From IMG/VR virus record IMGVR_UViG_3300035661_000046, positions 64,001-77,928 of that record: 13,928 nt of DNA; one strand, written 5' to 3'. This document shows positions 565-11,600 of the stretch, piece after piece (position 1 is the stretch's first letter; each line of letters starts with the position of its first letter). The notes under the pieces were generated by a model that was not told the DNA's origin, made no database searches, and saw nothing but the letters and a program-made list of their open reading frames with translations. The stretch comes from a virus (lineage: Duplodnaviria > Heunggongvirae > Uroviricota > Caudoviricetes). The translations under genes and the position numbers were made by a program.

Positions 565-2289
565 CTATTCTTTCCTTCCTTGTTGACGATGAATAAAATC
601 AATTAACATTTCTTGGTTTACAGTTAGTTTGCTATCTAATGTATCTACAATATGATTGTCAATATAACTACTACTAATCAGCCTATAATACTCACAATCA
701 TTTTTCTGACCAATACGATGAACTCTGTCTTGTTGTTGAAGGTATACCTCTAAGCTGAAGTTGAGGCTATAGAAGATTTGAGTAAATACTTTCGTGTCGA
801 TGCCAGGAGGTATGTCTATCTCCATTTCCTCTAGTTCGTCTTCTGAAGAACCGAGAATAGTCACGCCATAGTTAACCGCTTTAGCCTGGCATAGTAAAAA
901 GGATATATTAGGGTTTGTGTTAAACTCTCGTACTTTCGCTCCAACATCCTTTTCTCCGCCTTGAATGATCAAGTAGTTATAACCTGCAGAGTCTAACCCT
1001 TTAGTAATAATGTCTCTTTCACCAGCCATGTTATACCAGATTATACAGCGTCTACCTTTAAGCTTGCCAGATGCTAGATTAATCAAAGCATCCATTTTTG
1101 GCTGCTCATCAAAAGTAACTGTTACTCGTTTTGGTTGTCTCTTCTTAGGAGCTTTTTCTCCATTTAATTCTTCTAGGGAGTCGTCGTTCTTAATATAGAT
1201 AAACCCATTGGATATCTGTACCAGCTTACTAGCCAAAGCCAGAGGGTTGTCTACCTCAACAGTAAGGTCTCCAATAGTGGCCATGTAGTTAGCAGCTAAC
1301 ATATTAAAGACTTCTCTCTGCTGCTCTCCCATAGGAACTCGAACATCAAAAAAGTTCTTTTCAGGTAAACCTTTAAGCCATTCTTTCTTAGTCATTACTA
1401 TAGAAGCAGACTCTAGAATAGACCTAACCTCGGCAACTCTACGATAACCTACTATTAAATCACGCTCTCCAACCTTAACCTTTACGGCGTACTCATCTTT
1501 AAACCTAGTGTAACTTTCTCCAATCAAGGCAGGCTCTAAGAATCGTATTGGAGAACAGATGTCAGAAGGGGCTTTAGTTACTAGAGTACCAGACATGATG
1601 CTACCATAAGGAATGCCTTTACGAAGGCGTAGAATCGACTTGGTTCGATTTGATTTAGGATCTTTGATCAAGCCCTCATCAACTCCGATAAAGTCAACCT
1701 TGACCTTCTTGAGCTGTTCTTCAAATATCACAGCTTTATTATAGTTAATAACAACAATATCATGCGATAATATTCCAGCTACTTCTGATTCCCAGTCGGT
1801 AGTTTTAACTATATAAATGGTCTTGTCTGGACGATGAACCTTTAGCTCTTCTTGCCACACAAACAGTAGAGGTCTAGGACATACTATTACAGATTTCTTA
1901 AATTCCATAAGCGCAATAAAATCTAAGATTACTTTAGTCTTACCCATTCCAGGTTCTAACAATAGCCCTCCACCGCCTATTGTGTATAAATACCTTAAGG
2001 CTATTTCCTGATGAACTAAAGGAGTCGTAAAGAATTTAAAGGACTCGGGTATTGGTTTAAGTTTGAAGTCTGCTTTCACAAGTGCAGAAATCTCTGGGTC
2101 TATTTTTAATGCAAACTTCTTAAACATAAGTCTGCTTATTAAGTTGTGCAGTACCACTGGTTTAGCAGGGCTAAAAAAGTAAGGACCCTTCCTTAGAAAC
2201 CCAGGAAAAGCCAAAGCTTTTTTCATTTCAGCTTGGCTTTCCGGAGTGAATACTACTGTTGTTTTATTATCTGTAAAAGTTATCTTCAT
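565..2289 (-). CDS. SNF2-like (superfamily 2) helicase/ATPase
   Basis: Walker A-like LLLEPGMGKT, motif Ia VIVCP, Walker B VDEG..IKDPKSNRTK, motif III MSGT, motif VI QQQDRVHRIGQ; 574 aa. Confidence 0.9.
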   Translation of the reverse strand: MKITFTDNKTTVVFTPESQAEMKKALAFPGFLRKGPYFFSPAKPVVLHNLISRLMFKKFALKIDPEISALVKADFKLKPIPESFKFFTTPLVHQEIALRYLYTIGGGGLLLEPGMGKTKVILDFIALMEFKKSVIVCPRPLLFVWQEELKVHRPDKTIYIVKTTDWESEVAGILSHDIVVINYNKAVIFEEQLKKVKVDFIGVDEGLIKDPKSNRTKSILRLRKGIPYGSIMSGTLVTKAPSDICSPIRFLEPALIGESYTRFKDEYAVKVKVGERDLIVGYRRVAEVRSILESASIVMTKKEWLKGLPEKNFFDVRVPMGEQQREVFNMLAANYMATIGDLTVEVDNPLALASKLVQISNGFIYIKNDDSLEELNGEKAPKKRQPKRVTVTFDEQPKMDALINLASGKLKGRRCIIWYNMAGERDIITKGLDSAGYNYLIIQGGEKDVGAKVREFNTNPNISFLLCQAKAVNYGVTILGSSEDELEEMEIDIPPGIDTKVFTQIFYSLNFSLEVYLQQQDRVHRIGQKNDCEYYRLISSSYIDNHIVDTLDSKLTVNQEMLIDFIHRQQGRKE

Positions 2290-2813
2290 GGGTTGATGTT
2301 AAAGAGTACTTTAGCTGACTTATAGCTAAGAGCTTGAGGTAGTATGTTGTTCCAAGTTACTAGATTTCCATTTTTAAATCCATATGCTACTGCAAAGGAG
2401 TTATCAATAGAGTCAGTTAAATCTAGCAGGTTATCATCTGTATCACAATGTAATACTACAATGTCATCCTGAAACGCTTGTCGGTTATAATGTGGTACTT
2501 TATCCCAAAAAGAAGCAGACTTAGCAGTTACATCTATATCAGTTAAGACAACTACTCTTTGACCACTGAAGTTAATTTTCACCCATGCTAGTAAAAGATC
2601 TTCGAAGAGGTACCCTTTTACTTTTGGCGCACGATGCACCATTTCAGTAGTACTCAGGAACTCTTTGTAACCACGTTTTGAAGTAAAGTACCTATCATGA
2701 ACGGTACTATAATATTTATATAGTCCTGACGTGTCTCTAGCCCAAGGCCAGATTCTTACTAAAACGTCTCCATTTTTTTGAGTAAAATGAATTCCAAGCT
2801 TTGTAATCTTCAT
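2286..2813 (-). CDS. Hypothetical protein (175 aa)
   Basis: ORF with SD-like AAAGGA upstream; its stop overlaps the helicase start (ATGA), suggesting translational coupling. No recognised motif. Confidence 0.75.
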   Translation of the reverse strand: MKITKLGIHFTQKNGDVLVRIWPWARDTSGLYKYYSTVHDRYFTSKRGYKEFLSTTEMVHRAPKVKGYLFEDLLLAWVKINFSGQRVVVLTDIDVTAKSASFWDKVPHYNRQAFQDDIVVLHCDTDDNLLDLTDSIDNSFAVAYGFKNGNLVTWNNILPQALSYKSAKVLFNINP

Positions 2814-2839
2814 ATCGTTCCTTTGGTTGACAAAATAAA

Positions 2840-2867
2840 TAGGGTATTATATAGTACTTATACCCTA
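2840..2867. other. Inverted repeat (8-bp stem, 12-nt loop) containing the leftward promoter-like motif
   Basis: TAGGGTAT (2840-2847) and ATACCCTA (2860-2867). Confidence 0.6.
2848..2866 (-). promoter_or_regulatory. Putative phage promoter motif, variant copy
   Basis: Minus strand AGGGTATAAGTACTATATA aligns with TTGATATAAGAGTAATGTA (5653-5635). It lies upstream of the 175-aa/helicase genes and also includes part of a TATAAT hexamer. Confidence 0.5.
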
Positions 2868-2890
2868 AATACAGGAATTATTTATAGTGC

Positions 2891-2900
2891 TAAAATAAGC
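2891..2900 (+). promoter_or_regulatory. Putative rightward (late) promoter motif TAAAATAAGC
   Basis: The identical 10-mer occurs at 6461-6470. Both copies lie 30-50 bp upstream of a rightward structural-type gene. Confidence 0.5.
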
Positions 2901-2938
2901 TCATGAAACTAACTTCACTTACCGTAGGAAAATAATAA

Positions 2939-4075
2939 ATGACAACACCAGTATACAGTAACGTGTCTGCAGCTTTTCCAGCTGTCAGTTACTACACCCA
3001 GTTTGACCCCTACTTTTATACAGTAGATAACAGACCTTTATATAACTTAGCCAGTGTGGATAGTGTATTAGGAACAGGAGTAGATGCAGCTGCTAGGGCC
3101 ACACTAATTGATGCGTTGAGTGCAGCAGCCTCTTATAAAAACTTATATGGTGCTTCTCCTTTTATTACAGGTCTTGAATTAACTAATCCTGCGGCTAACG
3201 TAGTAAGAGTAGACATTGGTGCGCTATATGCTCCTTTAGCTATATCTTCTAGTGATACTAGAGTAGTAATTAAGCAAGGAGTACATGCAGTAACAACTGA
3301 CTTTTCTATTCCACCACCAGCAATTGTTGGACAGTCTGTTACTTATCTAATACAAGGTCTATACGTCGACTTTGGAGCGTCTACCTCCAGTACTTTCCCT
3401 TTCTTTGATGCAACTAACACTGTATTACCTAATACTCTGTTTAACGGAGAACTTCAGTTGCAAATAGTTACAGGTGTCGCAGCAACTACAGGAACTCAGA
3501 CTACTCCAGCGCCTACCGTAGGATGGACTCCTCTTTACGTTCTAACGGTTGACTACGGTGCTACTTCTTACTATAACGCAGCTTATGCAACAAATGCCCC
3601 TGCTAGCAAATGTTTCCCTAGAACAGGCATACCTCTGTCTAACCTAACCAGTACATCGGCTAGTATCGGTGATACTCCAGTAACAGCTTTTGCTGACGCA
3701 GCTACCCAAGGTGCTATTGGTAGAGTTCAAATACACCCATCAGCTTCACTAGTCAATCCGTACAAGCCAGTGCGTGTAAAAGTAGACTACGTTCCTTCAG
3801 TTACAGGTAATGCTTTTGCTGTAAGACTGAAATATCAAGTATTGGATGTAAGTACTTTGCTGACACCTGTGAGCTACACCGTAGGGGCTATAGAGAATAT
3901 TACAGTCACTGCTGCTGCTAACAGTATAGCCTCTTACACGTTTACCGCTAGTGTTCCAGGCTACTTAGTAAATGGAAAGAACACAATAAATTTAGTAATG
4001 GAAAGAGTTGGCGCTGATGCTAGTGATACTAATACTGGCATACTTAATGTTATGAACTTCACAGTGTATCAATAA
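2939..4075 (+). CDS. Putative virion structural protein (tail/baseplate/fibre-associated)
   Basis: 378 aa, rich in T/A/V/S/G with beta-strand-like patterning. The segment GVAATTGTQTTPAPTVGWTPLYVLTVDYG resembles motifs recalled from phage tail-associated proteins. SD-like AGGA upstream. Confidence 0.55.
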   Translation: MTTPVYSNVSAAFPAVSYYTQFDPYFYTVDNRPLYNLASVDSVLGTGVDAAARATLIDALSAAASYKNLYGASPFITGLELTNPAANVVRVDIGALYAPLAISSSDTRVVIKQGVHAVTTDFSIPPPAIVGQSVTYLIQGLYVDFGASTSSTFPFFDATNTVLPNTLFNGELQLQIVTGVAATTGTQTTPAPTVGWTPLYVLTVDYGATSYYNAAYATNAPASKCFPRTGIPLSNLTSTSASIGDTPVTAFADAATQGAIGRVQIHPSASLVNPYKPVRVKVDYVPSVTGNAFAVRLKYQVLDVSTLLTPVSYTVGAIENITVTAAANSIASYTFTASVPGYLVNGKNTINLVMERVGADASDTNTGILNVMNFTVYQ

Positions 4076-4382
4076 TATGATTGCATAATACATAAAGATT
4101 GCGTAATTCAGTAAGAATCAACGGTGCCGACCCTTCATTGAACGTCGGCATTTTTGTGCCTATACTAATTGCAATCTCTGCCAGTGATTGAATAGGATAA
4201 CCTGTAATATTCTTAGCTAGGATATGCTTCGCAGTAGTTACCAATAATGCATCTACTTCGTCTAAAAAAGTAGGGTGTAACATTGGATGAGAGTGAATGT
4301 ATATAAGCTCTGACACAGGAGGGTCTGTATCATCTCCTTTAAAGTATGCTTCTACTTTCGGGTTTGTTAAAGTGTAATTCAT
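4059..4382 (-). CDS. Hypothetical protein (107 aa)
   Basis: ORF with SD-like AAAGGA. Its 3' end overlaps the convergent 378-aa gene by 17 bp. Confidence 0.65.
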   Translation of the reverse strand: MNYTLTNPKVEAYFKGDDTDPPVSELIYIHSHPMLHPTFLDEVDALLVTTAKHILAKNITGYPIQSLAEIAISIGTKMPTFNEGSAPLILTELRNLYVLCNHIIDTL

Positions 4383-4402
4383 GTTTGTTCCTTTGAGTAA
4401 AA

Positions 4403-4434
4403 AATAAGGTAGAGTATATCACATCTACCTTATT
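4403..4434 (-). terminator. Stem-loop, terminator-like, overlapping a degenerate promoter-like motif
   Basis: AATAAGGTAGA (4403-4413) and TCTACCTTATT (4424-4434), 11-bp stem, followed by a T run on the minus strand, just downstream of the 108-aa gene. Confidence 0.6.
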
Positions 4435-4458
4435 ACTGCTATTTCCGGAGAAAATACA

Positions 4459-4785
4459 TCATAACCCACGTATGTTTGCCGGAGGTGGGTTATGACTAAA
4501 CTCACTTAATCCATAAGGTATAGTATCTGTAGATACGCCTAGATGTACCACATCAGAAGAGTCTATATAGTAGCACCCGTGGGCAGTATGTACTATTCCA
4601 TTGCTAGACACAGTCATAAGCATTATCTTCTCATTTGAATCCGATAAACACGTAGTATCTAGCAACTCTATATACCCTCCATCACTATAGTAGAATAGAG
4701 GTGAGGCAGGTTTAGTAACTACGTATAAGGCTACTCCTACTATTATAGATACAACTAATATTACAAGTGTTTTAAAAGTTTTCAT
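4459..4785 (-). CDS. Small membrane-anchored or exported protein (108 aa)
   Basis: Basic N-terminus followed by hydrophobic LVILVVSIIVGVALYVV; two Cys in the soluble part; SD AGGAG upstream. Confidence 0.75.
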   Translation of the reverse strand: MKTFKTLVILVVSIIVGVALYVVTKPASPLFYYSDGGYIELLDTTCLSDSNEKIMLMTVSSNGIVHTAHGCYYIDSSDVVHLGVSTDTIPYGLSEFSHNPPPANIRGL

Positions 4786-4807
4786 TCTGTTCTCCTAAAT
4801 TAAGGTA

Positions 4808-4833
4808 AAAAACCAGGGTAACACCTGGTTTTT
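4808..4833. terminator. Intrinsic terminator-like hairpin (potentially bidirectional)
   Basis: AAAAACCAGG-GTAACA-CCTGGTTTTT, 10 bp downstream of the stop of the 80-aa gene. Confidence 0.75.
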
Positions 4834-4843
4834 GTTTAGCGGA

Positions 4844-5086
4844 TTACTCCGCGTCAGGAATGTCACAGCTACAGCTTCCTTTAAGGAAGTGCATCCCTAC
4901 TGCTGCTGCTCCAGCAGCTACCACCGCAGCGATTGCATTGTGCTTTATGTTAAACCCCGCAAAGAAGCCTGTCTTAGCATCTTCCTTTGCATTAGCGTTG
5001 CTGGCTTTGCCCTTGGCATACGCATCTGCGTAGGTTGTTTCAAGCATCGATTCTAATTCTTTCTGGGTATATGTTTTTTCCGACAT
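4844..5086 (-). CDS. Small membrane protein, CxC-tail paralog 1 (80 aa)
   Basis: GFNIKHNAIAAVVAAGAAAVGMHFLKGSCSCDIPDAE is clearly homologous to the ORFs at 5392-5583 and 5710-5892; SD AAGGAG. Confidence 0.8.
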   Translation of the reverse strand: MSEKTYTQKELESMLETTYADAYAKGKASNANAKEDAKTGFFAGFNIKHNAIAAVVAAGAAAVGMHFLKGSCSCDIPDAE

Positions 5087-5141
5087 TTTACTGCTCCTTA
5101 ATATTTAAATTTAAATGCGCGTTTAAACACGCTACTATTAG

Positions 5142-5171
5142 AATTAGGCACAGGTCTTGCTGTGCCTAATT
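5142..5171. terminator. Perfect 12-bp stem-loop (terminator or RNA-stability hairpin)
   Basis: AATTAGGCACAG-GTCTTG-CTGTGCCTAATT, 12 bp downstream of the 47-aa ORF stop; the U-tract is weak. Confidence 0.6.
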
Positions 5172-5183
5172 TATAAAACACTA

Positions 5184-5327
5184 CTACCGTCCTGAAGCCG
5201 CATCTACTGCGCCGTTACAACGCCCAATCTTGTATGCTAATACGCTTAGGACTACTGTCACCAATAGTACAACTACGCCACCAGTCGCTACTTGAGCCTG
5301 CTCTGTTTTCTTTGAATCATTATTCAT
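5184..5327 (-). CDS. Small single-pass membrane peptide (47 aa)
   Basis: Manual translation MNNDSKKTEQAQVATGGVVVLLVTVVLSVLAYKIGRCNGAVDAASGR; SD AGGGAG; tandem TAG TAG stops. Not in the supplied track. Confidence 0.7.
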   Translation of the reverse strand: MNNDSKKTEQAQVATGGVVVLLVTVVLSVLAYKIGRCNGAVDAASGR

Positions 5328-5362
5328 GATAGTTCTCCCTAAATCAAATTAAGAAATTAAGT

Positions 5363-5384
5363 AAACCGGGTGTTACCCCGGTTT
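5363..5384 (-). terminator. Terminator-like hairpin after paralog 2
   Basis: AAACCGGG-TGTTAC-CCCGGTTT. Confidence 0.65.
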
Positions 5385-5391
5385 GTGTTTG

Positions 5392-5583
5392 TTACTCTGA
5401 GTCCGGCATGTCGCACTCACACTTACCGCTTATAAGGTACATCCCTGCTGCTGTTGCTGCTCCAGCTACTACCGCAGCAATTGCGTTATGTTTCCAATTG
5501 AAGCCCTTAAGAAAACCCTCTTTCTTAGCTTCAGCTTGTTGGTTTGTGTTGTTTGCGTTGTTTGCGTTGTTTGCGTTTGACAT
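5392..5583 (-). CDS. Small membrane protein, CxC-tail paralog 2 (63 aa)
   Basis: N-terminal NAN repeats, KHNAIAAVVAGAATAAGMYLISG hydrophobic helix, KCECDMPDSE tail; GGAG SD. Confidence 0.8.
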   Translation of the reverse strand: MSNANNANNANNTNQQAEAKKEGFLKGFNWKHNAIAAVVAGAATAAGMYLISGKCECDMPDSE

Positions 5584-5634
5584 GATGTATTACTCCATTA
5601 TGAAATTAAGGTTATTTAGAAAAGGTGCTTCTAC

Positions 5635-5653
5635 TACATTACTCTTATATCAA
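5635..5653 (-). promoter_or_regulatory. Putative phage promoter motif TTGATATAAGAGTAATGTA
   Basis: Related copies at 5944-5962, 6131-6149 and 6323-6341, all intergenic or at gene ends and all pointing left. Confidence 0.6.
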
Positions 5654-5682
5654 GTTCCAGGACGGAAATTGAAATTAAGTAA

Positions 5683-5700
5683 ACCGGGTATTACCCCGGT
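5683..5700 (-). terminator. Terminator-like hairpin after paralog 3
   Basis: ACCGGG-TATTAC-CCCGGT, homologous to 5363-5384. Confidence 0.6.
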
Positions 5701-5709
5701 CTATGTTTG

Positions 5710-5892
5710 TTACTCTGCGTCTGTCATGTCGCACTCACACTTCCCACCTATAAAGTACATACTCGCTGCCGTTGCAGCACCAACAAGTACTGCGCTGATT
5801 GCATTGTGCTTCCAGTTGAATCCAGACAAGAAGCTATCTTTCTTAGCTTCAGCTTGTTGGTTTGCGTTGTTTGCGTTGTTTGCGTTTGACAT
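5710..5892 (-). CDS. Small membrane protein, CxC-tail paralog 3 (60 aa)
   Basis: Near-identical architecture to paralog 2; ends GGKCECDMTDAE. Confidence 0.8.
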   Translation of the reverse strand: MSNANNANNANQQAEAKKDSFLSGFNWKHNAISAVLVGAATAASMYFIGGKCECDMTDAE

Positions 5893-5943
5893 TATGTATT
5901 ACTCCATTATGAAATTAAGGTTATTTAGAAAAGGTGCTTCTAC

Positions 5944-5962
5944 TACATTACTCTTATATCAA
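5944..5962 (-). promoter_or_regulatory. Putative phage promoter motif (copy in the duplicated unit)
   Basis: Identical to 5635-5653. Confidence 0.6.
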
Positions 5963-5985
5963 GTTCCAGGACGGAAATTGAATTC

Positions 5986-6090
5986 TCACAGCGCTTTGAA
6001 TGCAGCCACCTGGCTGTCACTCATGCTTTTTAATGCACCTAAGCCTAATACAACTAAGCATAAGACAACTATTACTTCTGCTGCTTTCAT
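5986..6090 (-). CDS. Small single-pass membrane peptide (34 aa)
   Basis: Manual translation MKAAEVIVVLCLVVLGLGALKSMSDSQVAAFKAL; strong SD AAGGAG. Not in the supplied track. Confidence 0.7.
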   Translation of the reverse strand: MKAAEVIVVLCLVVLGLGALKSMSDSQVAAFKAL

Positions 6091-6130
6091 ACTACTTCTC
6101 CTTAGTGTGGATAATAGGGTATACTTCTCC

Positions 6131-6149
6131 CATATTATCCTTATATCAA
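6131..6149 (-). promoter_or_regulatory. Putative phage promoter motif TTGATATAAGGATAATATG
   Basis: Shares TTGATATAAG-N4-ATRTR with the other copies; its TGA is also the stop codon of the 42-aa ORF. Confidence 0.55.
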
Positions 6150-6274
6150 TTTGTTACTTCATTATTGGATTCTGCATCCATCTTCCCTATGGTGTACGCA
6201 TAGCCGAATGTTCCCATTAACAATAATGGAAGGGATACCGCGAAGCTGATCATAGTGCGTGTATCTATAAACAT
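6146..6274 (-). CDS. Small single-pass membrane peptide (42 aa)
   Basis: Manual translation MFIDTRTMISFAVSLPLLLMGTFGYAYTIGKMDAESNNEVTN; SD AAAGGAG. Not in the supplied track. Confidence 0.7.
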   Translation of the reverse strand: MFIDTRTMISFAVSLPLLLMGTFGYAYTIGKMDAESNNEVTN

Positions 6275-6322
6275 GGTGTAGCTCCTTTAAATGTAATTAA
6301 TAAGTAAGAGACGTATTTCCCC

Positions 6323-6341
6323 TACATAATTCTTGTATCAA
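6323..6341 (-). promoter_or_regulatory. Putative phage promoter motif TTGATACAAGAATTATGTA at the head of the leftward cluster
   Basis: With flanks it reads AACTTGATACAAGAATTATGTAG versus AACTTGATATAAGAGTAATGTAG in the duplicated units, in otherwise unrelated sequence. Confidence 0.6.
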
Positions 6342-6381
6342 GTTGGGGATCCATTATTGACTTTTATCAGATATTGCTCCA

Positions 6382-6416
6382 AGAAACCCCGTCCTTCAGG
6401 GTGGGGAGGATGTCAA
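6382..6416 (+). mobile_element. Orphan IS200/IS605-family right-end-like remnant (no transposase or TnpB here)
   Basis: AGAAACCCCGTCCTTCAGGGTGGGGAGGATGTCAA: a GC-rich imperfect hairpin (CCCCGTCC-TTCA-GGGTGGGG) followed by GAGGATGTCAA, matching the remembered IS605/tnpB right-end pattern. It stands out in an AT-rich intergenic region. Confidence 0.65.
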
Positions 6417-6420
6417 GAAG

Positions 6421-6449
6421 TTGCATAACCTATTTTTTAGAGGTATACT
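6421..6449 (+). promoter_or_regulatory. Possible sigma70-type promoter
   Basis: TTGCAT (6421-6426), 17-bp spacer, TATACT (6444-6449), upstream of the portal gene. Confidence 0.4.
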
Positions 6450-6460
6450 GCGGTAACAAT

Positions 6461-6470
6461 TAAAATAAGC
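6461..6470 (+). promoter_or_regulatory. Putative rightward (late) promoter motif TAAAATAAGC
   Basis: Identical to 2891-2900; begins 32 bp before the portal ATG. Confidence 0.5.
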
Positions 6471-6492
6471 ATATTCATCAACTGGACAAAAT

Positions 6493-8385
6493 ATGGCAAC
6501 CTATCAAGATCAAATATCTACATTCGGCAACGTTGGGGGGCAAGCAAGTCCCTGGTTCACTGTTGCGAACCAATTCTTACCAAGAAACTTGCACGACGTT
6601 ATACGTTGGGTTCGTTATATTACTATACAGTCTCCGGTAACTACGGAGGTTATTCGTAAGCAAGCTACTTACCCTATTACGGATTTTGTAGTAGAGACTA
6701 ACAGTGATGCAGTTAAAGCTAAGTATAAAGAAATATTTGATAGCTTTAAGATGAAGCAGGTATTACAGGATATCGGATTTGATCATTACACAATAGGTAA
6801 CGTTTTTGTGTCTGTATTCTTTCCGGTACATAGAACCCTTACCTGCCCTTCTTGTGCTACAGCATACAACGCTAAGAAGGCGACTTTCTTAAAGTTTCAA
6901 AAGTTCTCCTTTCACGGAGAGTGTCCCGCATGTAGCTATATCGGAGACTTCCCTAGAAAAGATACTAAGTCTTTAGATATTAAAGACATGAACCTTATTA
7001 AGTGGAACCCACAGCACATCTCAGTTAACTATAATCCAATAACAGGTGAGGCTGAATACTACTACACAATTCCAAATGATATTCGCCGCAGAGTATTGCA
7101 GGGGGATAAGCTGTTTGTTAATAGTATTCCTTGGGCTTTTATAGAAGCAATTAAATATAACCAAGACTTCAAATTCGACTCAGAAAACATATTCCATTTG
7201 AGAAACGTATCTACAGGTACGGTTATTGAGGGCATCAGTATGCCTCCGTTAATAAGCTTGTTCTCTCTAGTATTTTATCAGGCTACATTACGCAAAGCTA
7301 ACGAGGCTATTGCCACCGAATACCTAAATCCAATGCGAGTTGTATTTCCTCAGGCACAGACTGGTAACTCAGACCCTGTAGTAGGAATGAGCTTGAAGAA
7401 CTTTGCTGGAAACATGAAGCAAGCTTTAGAACAGCATAAACGTGATAAGAACCACTTCATGATAGCTCCTGTACCAATCGGGTATCAGACTATTGGCGGT
7501 GAAGGCAAGAACTTACTAGTATCTGCTGAGATTGATCAGGCTGAACAGTCTATTCTTTTAAGTCTAGGTGTATCCCAAGAATTACTAAGTGGAACCACTA
7601 ACTGGACTAGTTCTACAGTCGGATTGCGTATGTTAGAAAATACAATGAATAGCTACGTCACTCAACTTACTGACCTTATTAACTGGGTTATGAGTAAAGT
7701 AACTACATACTTGTCTGTAGAGACTTGTGCTGTCAGCCTTACCCCATTCAAGTTAATGGATAACGATGCTTTGAAGCAGACCATCGAAGGCCTTATTAGT
7801 AGCGGAGACGGTTCTATTAGTAGTCTATATGAGTTGTTAGGCATGGACTATCAAGAAGAACTCGACAAGATAACTAAGGATAAAGTATCTAAGGCTAAAT
7901 TTGATATTGAATCTCAGTTTGAAGTTGAACAAGCTCAATTCCTAGCGTCTAAGGACATTAATACTAGACTGGATGGAAATCCTCATTATAAAGAATTGCT
8001 CACTCAAGCTACTGACATTGCTAGTCAATTATCTGGTGCCGATCCTTCTACTCTTAACTCTCTGATGGTTAATTTAAAATTAGAAAACTATCCGTTATAC
8101 ATGCTTACTGTTAAGCTTATGAATGAGGGCGCTATGACTACTCCAGGCCAAGATCCTAATCAGCAAGGTCAGCAAGGTCAGCAAGGTCAAGGGGATGATG
8201 GCTCTGGGGGTGCATCTCAGCCAGGAGGTAGCGCTGGACAAGCTCAATCGGAAGGTGCTTCTACTTCTCCTGGACAAGCTGGCACTGGTTCTGCAGCTAA
8301 ATCTAATAAACCGGCGGGTACTGCACCTAAGGTCAGTAAAGGTAAGTCTCCCGTTAAACAAGTTTCTAGTACAGGAGGTAAATAA
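6493..8385 (+). CDS. Probable portal protein with a CxxC...CxxC insert and a low-complexity tail
   Basis: 630 aa. Portal-like layout: QDIGFDHYTIGNVFV, the EAEYYY / NIFHLR beta region, GISMPPLISL, and EIDQAEQSILLSLGVSQELLSG (I...LGV...LL.G pattern). Q/G/S/K-rich C-terminus. Confidence 0.7.
   Translation: MATYQDQISTFGNVGGQASPWFTVANQFLPRNLHDVIRWVRYITIQSPVTTEVIRKQATYPITDFVVETNSDAVKAKYKEIFDSFKMKQVLQDIGFDHYTIGNVFVSVFFPVHRTLTCPSCATAYNAKKATFLKFQKFSFHGECPACSYIGDFPRKDTKSLDIKDMNLIKWNPQHISVNYNPITGEAEYYYTIPNDIRRRVLQGDKLFVNSIPWAFIEAIKYNQDFKFDSENIFHLRNVSTGTVIEGISMPPLISLFSLVFYQATLRKANEAIATEYLNPMRVVFPQAQTGNSDPVVGMSLKNFAGNMKQALEQHKRDKNHFMIAPVPIGYQTIGGEGKNLLVSAEIDQAEQSILLSLGVSQELLSGTTNWTSSTVGLRMLENTMNSYVTQLTDLINWVMSKVTTYLSVETCAVSLTPFKLMDNDALKQTIEGLISSGDGSISSLYELLGMDYQEELDKITKDKVSKAKFDIESQFEVEQAQFLASKDINTRLDGNPHYKELLTQATDIASQLSGADPSTLNSLMVNLKLENYPLYMLTVKLMNEGAMTTPGQDPNQQGQQGQQGQGDDGSGGASQPGGSAGQAQSEGASTSPGQAGTGSAAKSNKPAGTAPKVSKGKSPVKQVSSTGGK
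8161..8187 (+). repeat. In-frame (CAGCAAGGT)x3 repeat encoding QQG
   Basis: Three perfect 9-bp copies in the portal tail. Confidence 0.9.
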
Positions 8386-8642: not shown

Positions 8643-11600
8643 ATGTCAGACTCCTTATACCCTATATTTTCTTCTCCTCATGCTATTAATAAACAGGCAG
8701 ATGATGCCTTAATAGAAGGGCTACAGACTCAGTTCCCTATCGAGAATAAAAACTTTGAACTTAAGCTAAGTAACGTTCATGCGGATAAAAAAGAATTCTC
8801 TCAGGAAGACGAGAAGCAAGCTATTCTTAAATCCAAGTCTTTAACCTATCCTATTAAGGGAGACCTTACCCTTATTAGTAAGGCTACTGGTAAAGTAGTA
8901 GACGTAGAGAAGAACTTCACTCTTATGGATTCTTTTTCCATGACTGGAAAGCATACTCTTATTTATAATGGTAACAACTACGTAGTTGCTAACCAGTTAC
9001 AGTTGCGTCCTGGCGTGTACACTCGTAGTAAAGAGTCTGGAGAGTTAGAGTCACATATAAACACGGCTACTGGTCGTAGCTTCTCTATTACTCTGGATCC
9101 TAAGTCTAGCCTGTTTTACATCAACGTTGCCTCCTCTACTATTCTACTAGCCCCTTTGCTATATAGAGTATTTGGAATAGGGAAGACTGAAGTATACAAA
9201 TATATACCTCCTGCTGTCTGGGACGCCAATGTGAAAGCGGCTGAGGGTAAAGAGACTAAGCTGATCGGAGACATGTACAACAAATTAGTCTCTACTGCTC
9301 TACGAACCAAGAATGCCAATACTGATCAGATGGCTTTAGATATTAAAAACTCTCTTGAGCAGTCTCAATTATCTACACTTACTACTAAGATTACTTTAGG
9401 TAAATCTATTGATGCTGTTCGTCCAGAAGCTATTCTTCTAGCACTACATAATTTAGTACAAGTTCATACTGGTGAAAGAGAGGAGGATAACCGCGACTCC
9501 CTGCAGTTCAAGCGTGTCCAAAACCTACCTGATTACTTGTCTAGAAGATTTGAGAAAGAACACGCCTCTATTGCTAAAATTAAAAGCAAGCTCTCTTTTA
9601 ACCTAGAGAAACTGGATGCTAACGCTCCTAGAATACGTGCAGCTATACCAGCCAAGCCTTTTAACAAGGTGTACTCGAGTTATATTCTAGATTCCCCACT
9701 GGTGTCTACACCTAGTGAAACAAATCCACTAGAGAGCCTTGAGAACGTCGGTAAGGTAACAGTTCTTGGTGCAGATGAAGGTGGTATAGGAGATGAGCGT
9801 GGAGTACCTATGACCGCTCGTAATATTGATCCTTCTCATCTAGGTATCATAGATCCGACTCGTACTCCAGAATCAAGCCACGCCGGTATTGATCAACGTT
9901 TTACTATTAATGCTAGACGTGACCGTGCAGGGAACTTGTACTCTAGAGTGCTAGACTTGCAAGGTAAGCCTTATAACCTATCAGTATCTGACCTTATGAA
10001 TTCTGTGGTAGGTTTTCCTAACCAGGAAGGTAAGAAAGTTGTTCAGGCTCAAGATCATGGCCAGTTAAAAGAAGTACCTCGTAGTACTGTGCAATACTGG
10101 ATACCGGATGCTACTAGCCTGTATACCGTTACTACAAACTTAGTGCCCTTCCTGAACAGTAACCATCCTGGTCGTTTAACTATGGCGGGTAAAGCCTTAC
10201 CTCAAGCATTGTCATTAGTTAATAGAGAGATACCTTTAGTACAGACTATGTCTGAGAGCAAAGGTGCTTTTATTAAACAGTTGGGTGCAGTTGTTAGTAC
10301 TATTTCTCCAGTACATGGGGTGATACATTCTGTCAGTGATAAAAAGATAGTTATCAAGGGTGATGACGGTAAGAAGACCGAGGTTATTCCAGTAAAGAAC
10401 CTGCCTTTTAACATGAAAGGATTCTTGGATGATGAAACTCCTTTGGTTAAAGAGGGAGACCGAGTTAAGCCAGGACAGGTGTTACTAGATAATAACTATA
10501 CTAGAGACGGTAACCTAACCTTAGGTAAAAACCTGACTGTCTCCTACCTACCATATAAAGGCTACAACCACGAGGACGGTATAGTGATCTCTCATTCTGC
10601 TGCCGCGTCACTATCTAGCCATCACTCCTATAAAGTGGACTATGACGTAGTGTCAGACTCTATAATGAAGAAGGGGCTACTACGTCGCTATTACCCTAAC
10701 AAGTTTACTAAAGAGCAGTTGGATAACCTGGATGATGCAGGTTTCGCTAAGGTAGGCTCCACAATGCACCACGGAGATCCTATATACGCTGTCCTAGAGA
10801 AGCGCGAAGCTACTCCAGAGGACAAGATGTTAGGAAGACTACACAAGACCTTGGTTAACCCCTACAGACTTGTTACAGAGGAGTGGAATCACCAAGAGCC
10901 TGGCTTAGTTGTTGACGCACATACCGAAGGTAAATCTATTCGTATTCTACTGCGGTCTGTTAAAGAATTAGAAGTTGGTGACAAACTAACTGGCTTACAT
11001 GGCAATAAAGGTATTGTATCTTTAGTGCTTCCAGACCATGAGATGCCTTATAACAAAGATACTGGTAAACCAGTAGATATGTTGCTTAACCCTGCTTCTG
11101 TTACAAGTCGTATTAACTTAGGACAAATTATGGAAACTGTTGCTGGTAAGCTTGCGCTAAAACGAGGCACTCCTTACTTGTTGCATAACTTCTCTAATGA
11201 AAACAACCTTACGGCATTGAAGAAGCAACTAGCTGACGAGGGTGTTTCCGATACAGAAACATTGATAGATCCTAAGTCAGGCAAGCAGTTAGACAAAGTA
11301 CTCACTGGTCCTCAGTATATACTTAAACTATATAAAACCTCTGATCAAAACCTTTCAGCTCGTAACGTTGGTGCGTATGATAACGTTCTACAACCTACAA
11401 AAGGTGGCGAGCAAGGTTCTAAGTCTGTTGGATATATGGAGATGCTAGGTCTACTAGGTTCTAACTCTCGCCACAACTTAAAAGAGATAGCTACTACTAA
11501 GTCAGAGGATAACTCAGAGTACTGGTCTAAGTTTCTTAATGGTCAAGCGTTGCCTAAACCTAAAACTACTTTTGCTACTAACAAGTTCTTTAATTATCTA

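Follow-up and report, generated by a model that had tools for sequence, protein, structure and literature searches.

The late promoter of phage T4, TATAAATA, is read by gp55 together with gp33 and the clamp. In jumbo phages that encode an RNA polymerase, AT-rich early motifs centred on the -10 position are read by sigma-less virion enzymes (PMC7598289). Phages that combine a bacterial-type RNA polymerase with sigma-like factors have barely been studied: in the literature we found no paper that defines their promoters, and no description of TATAAG or GGTATAAG as a phage promoter. Here we describe a recurrent leftward motif of such a phage, G-N-TATAAG followed after four nucleotides (nt) by wTRTR, in a stretch of 13,928 nt (referred to throughout as the window) that covers positions 64,001 to 77,928 of the tailed-phage record IMGVR_UViG_3300035661_000046. 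In our judgement it is likely that four strong sites in an array of small genes beside the portal gene, together with a fifth site at 2866, form a lineage-specific promoter class that is probably read by a phage protein of the sigma-70 family.

Like the T4 late promoter, the motif is a phage-specific TATAA-type element confined to the -10 region; it differs from it in the final base, in the requirement for an upstream G or TG, and in its use before non-structural rather than late genes. With the early promoters of jumbo phages of the phiKZ/AR9 type it shares a phage-specific motif near -10 that can be computed before non-structural operons, and a polymerase that is found in virions. However, in the phiKZ/AR9 type the beta and beta-prime subunits of the polymerase are split, a sigma homologue is lacking, and the motifs are AT-rich throughout, whereas here the polymerase is nearer the bacterial type, with an unsplit beta and sigma homologues, and the motif contains TG and a G at -7. 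The extended -10 promoter of sigma-70 (TGnTATAAT) resembles the motif in the TG upstream of an A/T hexamer, in A as the second base of the hexamer, in the lack of need for a -35 element, and in the predicted distance of about 6 nt between the hexamer and a pyrimidine-purine start. In contrast to that promoter, the last base of the hexamer is G and not a near-invariant T, the start region (wTRTR and a purine tract) is conserved, and the reader is probably a phage sigma, possibly with a phage core enzyme.

The window is the final 13.9 kb of a 77.9-kb viral contig (39% G+C, completeness estimated at 44%) that was found in microbial-mat and sediment metagenomes; strain variants of the window were seen in DNA contigs from four mat or sediment runs. 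Between about 3.5 kb and 70.4 kb of the contig, nearly all genes are directed leftward. A rightward block begins at window position 6493 with the portal gene, followed by a homologue of the RNA polymerase beta subunit (1113 amino acids, aa), which is unsplit in this clade, and by pieces of beta-prime. In a comparison of beta proteins, Salmonella phage Arash (54% identity) and the Vibrio phages D69, D181 and D148 (52%) came out as the nearest deposited relatives. The local gene order of Arash matches that of the window: helicases run leftward, a structural gene runs rightward and small genes run leftward, followed by portal and beta in the rightward direction. A megablast search of the window against deposited phages gave no match, and neither did a search of viral contigs with a single portal sequence. 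At E < 1e-30 the portal protein has 496 homologues; 46 related loci were fetched, of which 44 had sufficient DNA before the portal gene and were scored.

Motif sites in the window and across the lineage

The initial annotation had listed six leftward sites of the motif, four strong and two weak. The four strong sites (6341-6323, 6149-6131, 5962-5944 and 5653-5635, all on the minus strand) match TTGATAYAAGRRTWATRTR without a mismatch, while shuffled sequence yields a mean of 0.01 such matches and none of 200 shuffles reaches four. In the flank alignment their likeness covers about 27 nt, ATRTR being followed by a purine tract rich in G, and the strict 10-mer TTGATAYAAG occurs at these four places only in the whole contig. 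The two weak sites are reclassified. The one at 2866 is a canonical copy of the motif, but the one at 4438-4420 had to be rejected as a member: with positions counted from the predicted start and TATAAG at -12 to -7, it has A instead of T both at -15 and at the first position of the hexamer, and both bases are invariant in members. Site 4438-4420 is the 5' arm of a hairpin just past the stop codon of a 108-aa gene, and it is an intrinsic terminator, not a member of the promoter class. The sites at 5962 and 5653 had been recognized correctly as copies from one duplication (tandem, about 309 base pairs (bp), with near-identical flanks). Therefore the strong sites amount to three independent ones. 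At the strong sites the 3' end of the motif lies 34-51 nt from the start codon, in rough agreement with the 35-55 bp given at first, and the original formula G-x-TATAAG-N4-ATRTR describes the class well. The predicted promoters and the terminator are the following:

6315..6341, minus strand: predicted promoter P1, variant TTGATACAAG-N4-ATGTA with a purine tract; predicted start about G6325; exact pattern match and flank alignment
6123..6149, minus strand: predicted promoter P2, TTGATATAAG-N4-ATATG; predicted start about A6133; pattern match and flank alignment
5936..5962, minus strand: predicted promoter P3, TTGATATAAG-N4-ATGTA; predicted start about G5946; precedes a 60-aa open reading frame (ORF)
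5627..5653, minus strand: predicted promoter P4, the tandem duplicate of P3; predicted start about G5637; precedes a 63-aa ORF
2848..2866, minus strand: predicted canonical promoter, AGGGTATAAG-N4-ATATA; predicted start about A2850; one of 15 leftward GGTATAAG sites
4400..4438, minus strand: intrinsic terminator after the 108-aa gene; hairpin of -13.4 kcal/mol (z -3.25), then U6

P1 lies upstream of a 42-aa membrane-protein ORF and is divergent from the portal gene; its form TTGATACAAG is retained at the same array in the related loci L018, L069 and L070. At P2, the TGA at -15 to -13 (window 6146-6148) is at the same time the stop codon of the preceding 42-aa ORF, and a hairpin at about 6139-6108 (z -3.3) overlaps the promoter, spanning the spacer and the early transcribed region. 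A hairpin at site 2866 was considered as a terminator and rejected, its z of -1.65 not being significant.

Throughout the contig the pattern GGTATAAG is found 15 times leftward, site 2866 included, and never rightward, and 11 of the 15 sites fall in the 10% of the DNA that is non-coding. The pattern TGNTATAAG occurs 14 times leftward and once rightward, where a first-order Markov model predicts 3.2 and 2.4. The counts in the two cultured relatives are:

Arash, GGTATAAG: 30 leftward, 1 rightward
Arash, TATAAG-N5-TRTA: 17 leftward, 0 rightward
D69, TATAAG-N5-TRTA: 10 leftward, 1 rightward
D69, TGNTATAAG: 24 leftward, 1 rightward

The reversed-pattern control for TATAAG-N5-TRTA gave 0 in both Arash and D69. 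In Arash, the GGTATAAG sites mostly stand directly before the ribosome-binding site and ATG of non-structural genes, and the motif is present upstream of nearly all non-structural units. Of the 44 related loci, 38 have a G-N-TAYAAG in leftward orientation no more than 400 nt upstream of the portal gene (5 have one on the other strand), and all upstream DNA of the 44 loci together contains 87 leftward copies versus 10 rightward ones; in our window the copy divergent from the portal gene is P1, at 6341. A pattern scan of viral contigs with CTTGATAYAAGNNNNRTRTAG returned 20 single matches, about the number expected by chance, and none of these contigs was enriched in the motif. The class consensus is G(-14)-N-TATAAG, 4 nt, then wTRTR, and it is strand-specific. 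The promoter identity proposed at the outset is well supported by the enrichment by strand and in intergenic DNA across this contig, the lack of which had been named at the outset as a refuting outcome, by the copies in Arash and D69, and by the conserved place next to the portal gene; to judge from these comparisons, the sites are very probably real promoters.

Individual positions of the motif differ in their constancy. D69 uses TG(T/C/G/A)TATAAG, with TGT or TGC preferred, and since D69 varies at -13, the invariants shared by the lineage are G(-14) and TATAAG. G(-14) was fixed by the search patterns in our contig and in Arash; in the D69 search, where it was left free, all 11 leftward sites have G. 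T(-15) is shared by 12 of the 15 GGTATAAG sites of the contig, by all four array sites and, in Arash, by 18 of 30 sites. The lone rightward GGTATAAG of Arash (record position 11589, plus strand) falls where gp8 ends; gp9 starts 4 nt further on, and gp10, the gene of the virion sigma, follows about 300 nt downstream. In addition, a G+C-rich hairpin immediately follows several class promoters (at about 4063 and 47831 of our contig, and at 42623, 68711 and 87303 of Arash); such hairpins would form the very 5' end of the transcript.

The distance to translation signals helps to place the motif relative to the transcription start. In Arash, the end of the hexamer is at minimum 16-20 nt, and in the median 30 nt, from the ATG, and the ribosome-binding site of the shortest units is reached 7 nt past the hexamer. 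This should leave no more than about 7 nt between the hexamer and the start, which in turn would place the hexamer at -10. These minima agree with the start 6-8 nt past the hexamer that is expected of a sigma-70-family extended -10 promoter. We infer that +1 is likely the central purine of wTRTR, which follows a pyrimidine and is 6 nt past the hexamer. Upstream of -16 the information content is near zero in our contig, in Arash and in D69, and no -35 element is conserved. The statement that the sites have no -35/-10 geometry was thus correct only in part: a -35 box is indeed missing, but TG and a hexamer of the -10 kind make up the core; as far as the alignments go, the layout is that of an extended -10 promoter without a -35 box, save for the G at -7.

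The TTGATAYAAG variant of the portal-proximal array

In their core, their strand logic and their place divergent from the portal gene, the array promoters agree with the GGTATAAG motif of Arash, D69/D181 and uncultured relatives. What sets them apart is A(-13) and T(-16) in all four, and TACAAG in one of them; these features are limited to the array and to the closest sub-clade. The lineage-wide class has G(-13), which is present at site 2866; the array sites have A(-13) and were therefore filed as a sub-class. In our own genome TGA is found at 4 of 4 array promoters versus 0 of 15 sites elsewhere, all of which have G(-13). In the six closest relatives (portal identity 61-74%) the TGA form is present in 11 of 14 array promoters, TTGATACAAG included. 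Among the related loci compared, the A(-13)/T(-16) variant is restricted to these six, and all more distant relatives have TGG. TTGATA was also considered as a possible -35 box and rejected, no copy having a -10-like hexamer 16-18 nt downstream.

These data could be explained without any functional sub-class, if -13 and -16 were neutral positions and their present state had been spread by duplication of a promoter-gene cassette within the array. P3 and P4 are indeed a recent duplication, D69 has T, C, G or A at position -13, and the variant is limited to one sub-clade. However, A(-13) and T(-16) persist in those 11 of 14 array promoters despite a portal identity of only 61-74%, and G(-13) is retained at all 15 other sites of our genome, so that both states look selected. 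Neutral spread remains a serious competitor, although we put its probability somewhat below one half. The functional reading of the sub-class starts from the observation that both -13 states look maintained across these genomes, which suggests a difference in strength, timing or sigma choice. In its boldest form, -13 and -16 would constitute a second promoter code, with TGG and TTGA read by different phage sigmas (of the virion gp10 type and of the gp196 type, described below), so that the portal-adjacent array of membrane-protein genes would have its own timing in a sigma cascade acting on a phage-borne bacterial-type RNA polymerase; this we offer as a speculation that is unlikely to be right. 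Two things are new from the window: the portal-proximal array has a conserved sub-class of its own, TTGATAYAAG, and the two weak sites are reclassified.

The reader of the motif

A position that bears on the reader is -7. Sigma-70 binds a flipped-out T(-7) in a pocket, and its optimum would be TATAAT (PMC7598289). The hexamer ends in G at every pattern-defined site of our genome, Arash, D69 and the 44 loci, the search patterns themselves fixing this G, and A(-11) is present. Measured against the sigma-70 extended -10 class, the sites have the TG and the independence from a -35 element and lack the T at -7. As G occupies the position where sigma-70 needs T, a phage-encoded protein of the sigma-70 family is the most likely reader, and because G(-7) is invariant across phages of Salmonella, of Vibrio and of unknown mat hosts, this reader would be a dedicated factor and not the sigma-70 of the host. 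One could nevertheless regard the sites as ordinary extended -10 promoters read by the host sigma-70 holoenzyme, with the phage polymerase serving other genes: TGnTATAAG is only one base from the textbook TGnTATAAT, and the hexamer is at the right distance from the start codons. Given the constant G in phages from Salmonella, Vibrio, mats and sediments, and a different, sigma-70-like -35/-10 signal before the rightward structural genes of the window, we consider reading by the host holoenzyme quite improbable. That the motif is no promoter but a regulator binding site, or a signal for the processing or stability of long leftward RNAs, would suit the copies that are directly followed by hairpins, yet it is highly improbable, as many copies stand after terminators and ahead of a unit's first gene, one copy opens the leftward series beside a divergent gene, where no transcript should arrive from upstream, and the -10-like composition and the fixed distance to the Y-R start motif fit initiation.

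Candidates for a phage-encoded reader are at hand. Our contig contains a 284-aa gene of the sigma family (Sigma70_r2, 38.9 bits; weak region 4), whose product is 40% identical to Arash gp196. A second sigma of Arash, gp10, matches Sigma70_r3 over profile positions 4-40 of 78 and has a weak region 2; region 3 contacts the TG. No gp10 homologue is present on our contig, where completeness of about 44% makes the absence uninformative. In Arash virions, gp206 (beta), gp216 (beta-prime) and gp10 are among the most abundant proteins, and gp196 is not among the virion proteins in the covered portion of the published table (PMC10585845). The phage machinery that the initial annotation had named as the reader is plausible in view of the invariant G at -7, the sigma proteins and the virion content of Arash, and we infer, with reasonable though limited confidence, that the motif is read by phage-encoded specificity factors.

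In the mechanism that we propose, a promoter of this class would consist of G(-14), usually as part of TG, TATAAG at -12 to -7, a 4-nt spacer and a wTRTR start region, with no -35 element. The phage sigma would probably work with the phage's own bacterial-type RNA polymerase, which in Arash is packaged in the virion along with one sigma. The four array promoters would fire leftward from the portal gene, each before the gene of a tiny membrane protein; terminator hairpins close two of these genes, which would make the array a row of small independent units. Early use by a virion-delivered enzyme has, in our estimate, slightly less than an even chance. Several points weigh against this picture. 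The contig, at about 44% completeness, lacks a gp10-type sigma, so that any assignment of a sigma and a core enzyme to the motif is tentative; the motif of Arash stands before nearly all non-structural units and so is not specifically early; promoter activity and the start site are predictions from sequence comparison; and A(-13) could be a tolerated base spread by the array duplication, given that -13 varies freely in D69.

Genes and elements around the predicted promoters, and their significance

The genes behind the predicted promoters are mostly very short:

6146..6274, minus strand: 42-aa hydrophobic ORF behind P1; no PHROG family
5986..6090, minus strand: 34-aa hydrophobic ORF behind P2; no PHROG family
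5710..5892, minus strand: 60-aa ORF; Asn-Ala repeat at the N-terminus, GFNWKH motif, one hydrophobic helix; terminator at 5703-5680
5392..5583, minus strand: 63-aa paralogue of the 60-aa ORF; terminator at 5384-5363
4059..5327, minus strand: four small ORFs (47, 80, 108 and 107 aa) with no G-N-TATAAG site upstream
565..2813, minus strand: operon of a 175-aa gene and a 574-aa SNF2-family helicase, downstream of the canonical promoter 2866

Each of the ORFs behind P1 to P4 (42, 34, 60 and 63 aa) contains a hydrophobic helix, and a strong hairpin follows both the 60-aa and the 63-aa gene. The 63-aa ORF is homologous to a 62-aa ORF behind TTGATACAAG in L018 (43% identity over 37 aa, E 6e-11). The small ORFs of the array have no match among PHROG families, and homology of the small array proteins to Arash gp202 was not supported by BLASTP. 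The ORFs of 47, 80, 108 and 107 aa are probably transcribed by read-through of the hairpins. The layout of the 175-aa gene and the helicase recurs in L070 and L074. The Asn-Ala repeat varies in length (5859; 5540-5583): at 5859, one metagenome contig contains an additional unit of 9 nt, and the 60-aa and 63-aa paralogues are one repeat unit apart.

Signals of another type point rightward. At window 2827-2855 (plus strand) there is a near-consensus sigma-70-type promoter, TTGACA-17-TATAGT (11 of 12 positions), aimed at a 378-aa gene at 2939-4075, the matching place of which in the Arash gene order is held by gp199. The -10 of this signal shares bases with the spacer and the start region of the GGGTATAAG promoter that points leftward at 2866-2848, and the two could be mutually exclusive. 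A weaker -35/-10-like pair, TTGCAT-17-TATACT, is located upstream of the portal gene at 6421-6449 (plus strand). The rightward structural genes seem to have a type of promoter different from that of the leftward genes. Sites of the sigma-70 -35/-10 type are not enriched in 2600-6600 (7 found versus 10.8 expected).

Between the divergent promoters, the read depth in four metagenomes rises over a 34-nt stretch (window 6383-6416, plus strand) to 20-100 times that of the surroundings, and the flanks of the stretch vary. Its 22-nt core was found in 29 places in very diverse genomes, among them more than 12 copies in one Saccharopolyspora as well as copies in haloarchaea and proteobacteria, and is followed by GATGTCAA in 3 of the 29. 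Rfam gave weak HgcC and sot0042 matches to the stretch, which is absent from the relatives L018 and L019. The stretch resembles the last part of the right end of an IS200/IS605 element (TnpB omega-RNA), left behind as a footprint or captured as a fragment.

The promoter class may be of use beyond this phage. A clade-wide signal with a diagnostic G(-7) and two states at -13 would give a handle for annotating transcription units in hundreds of uncultured genomes. The same signal offers a way to ask how the pocket of a sigma factor is retuned away from host promoters. Finally, the two states at -13 provide a way to ask whether two phage sigmas share out the transcription programme between them, a question that is feasible to address since Arash is in culture.

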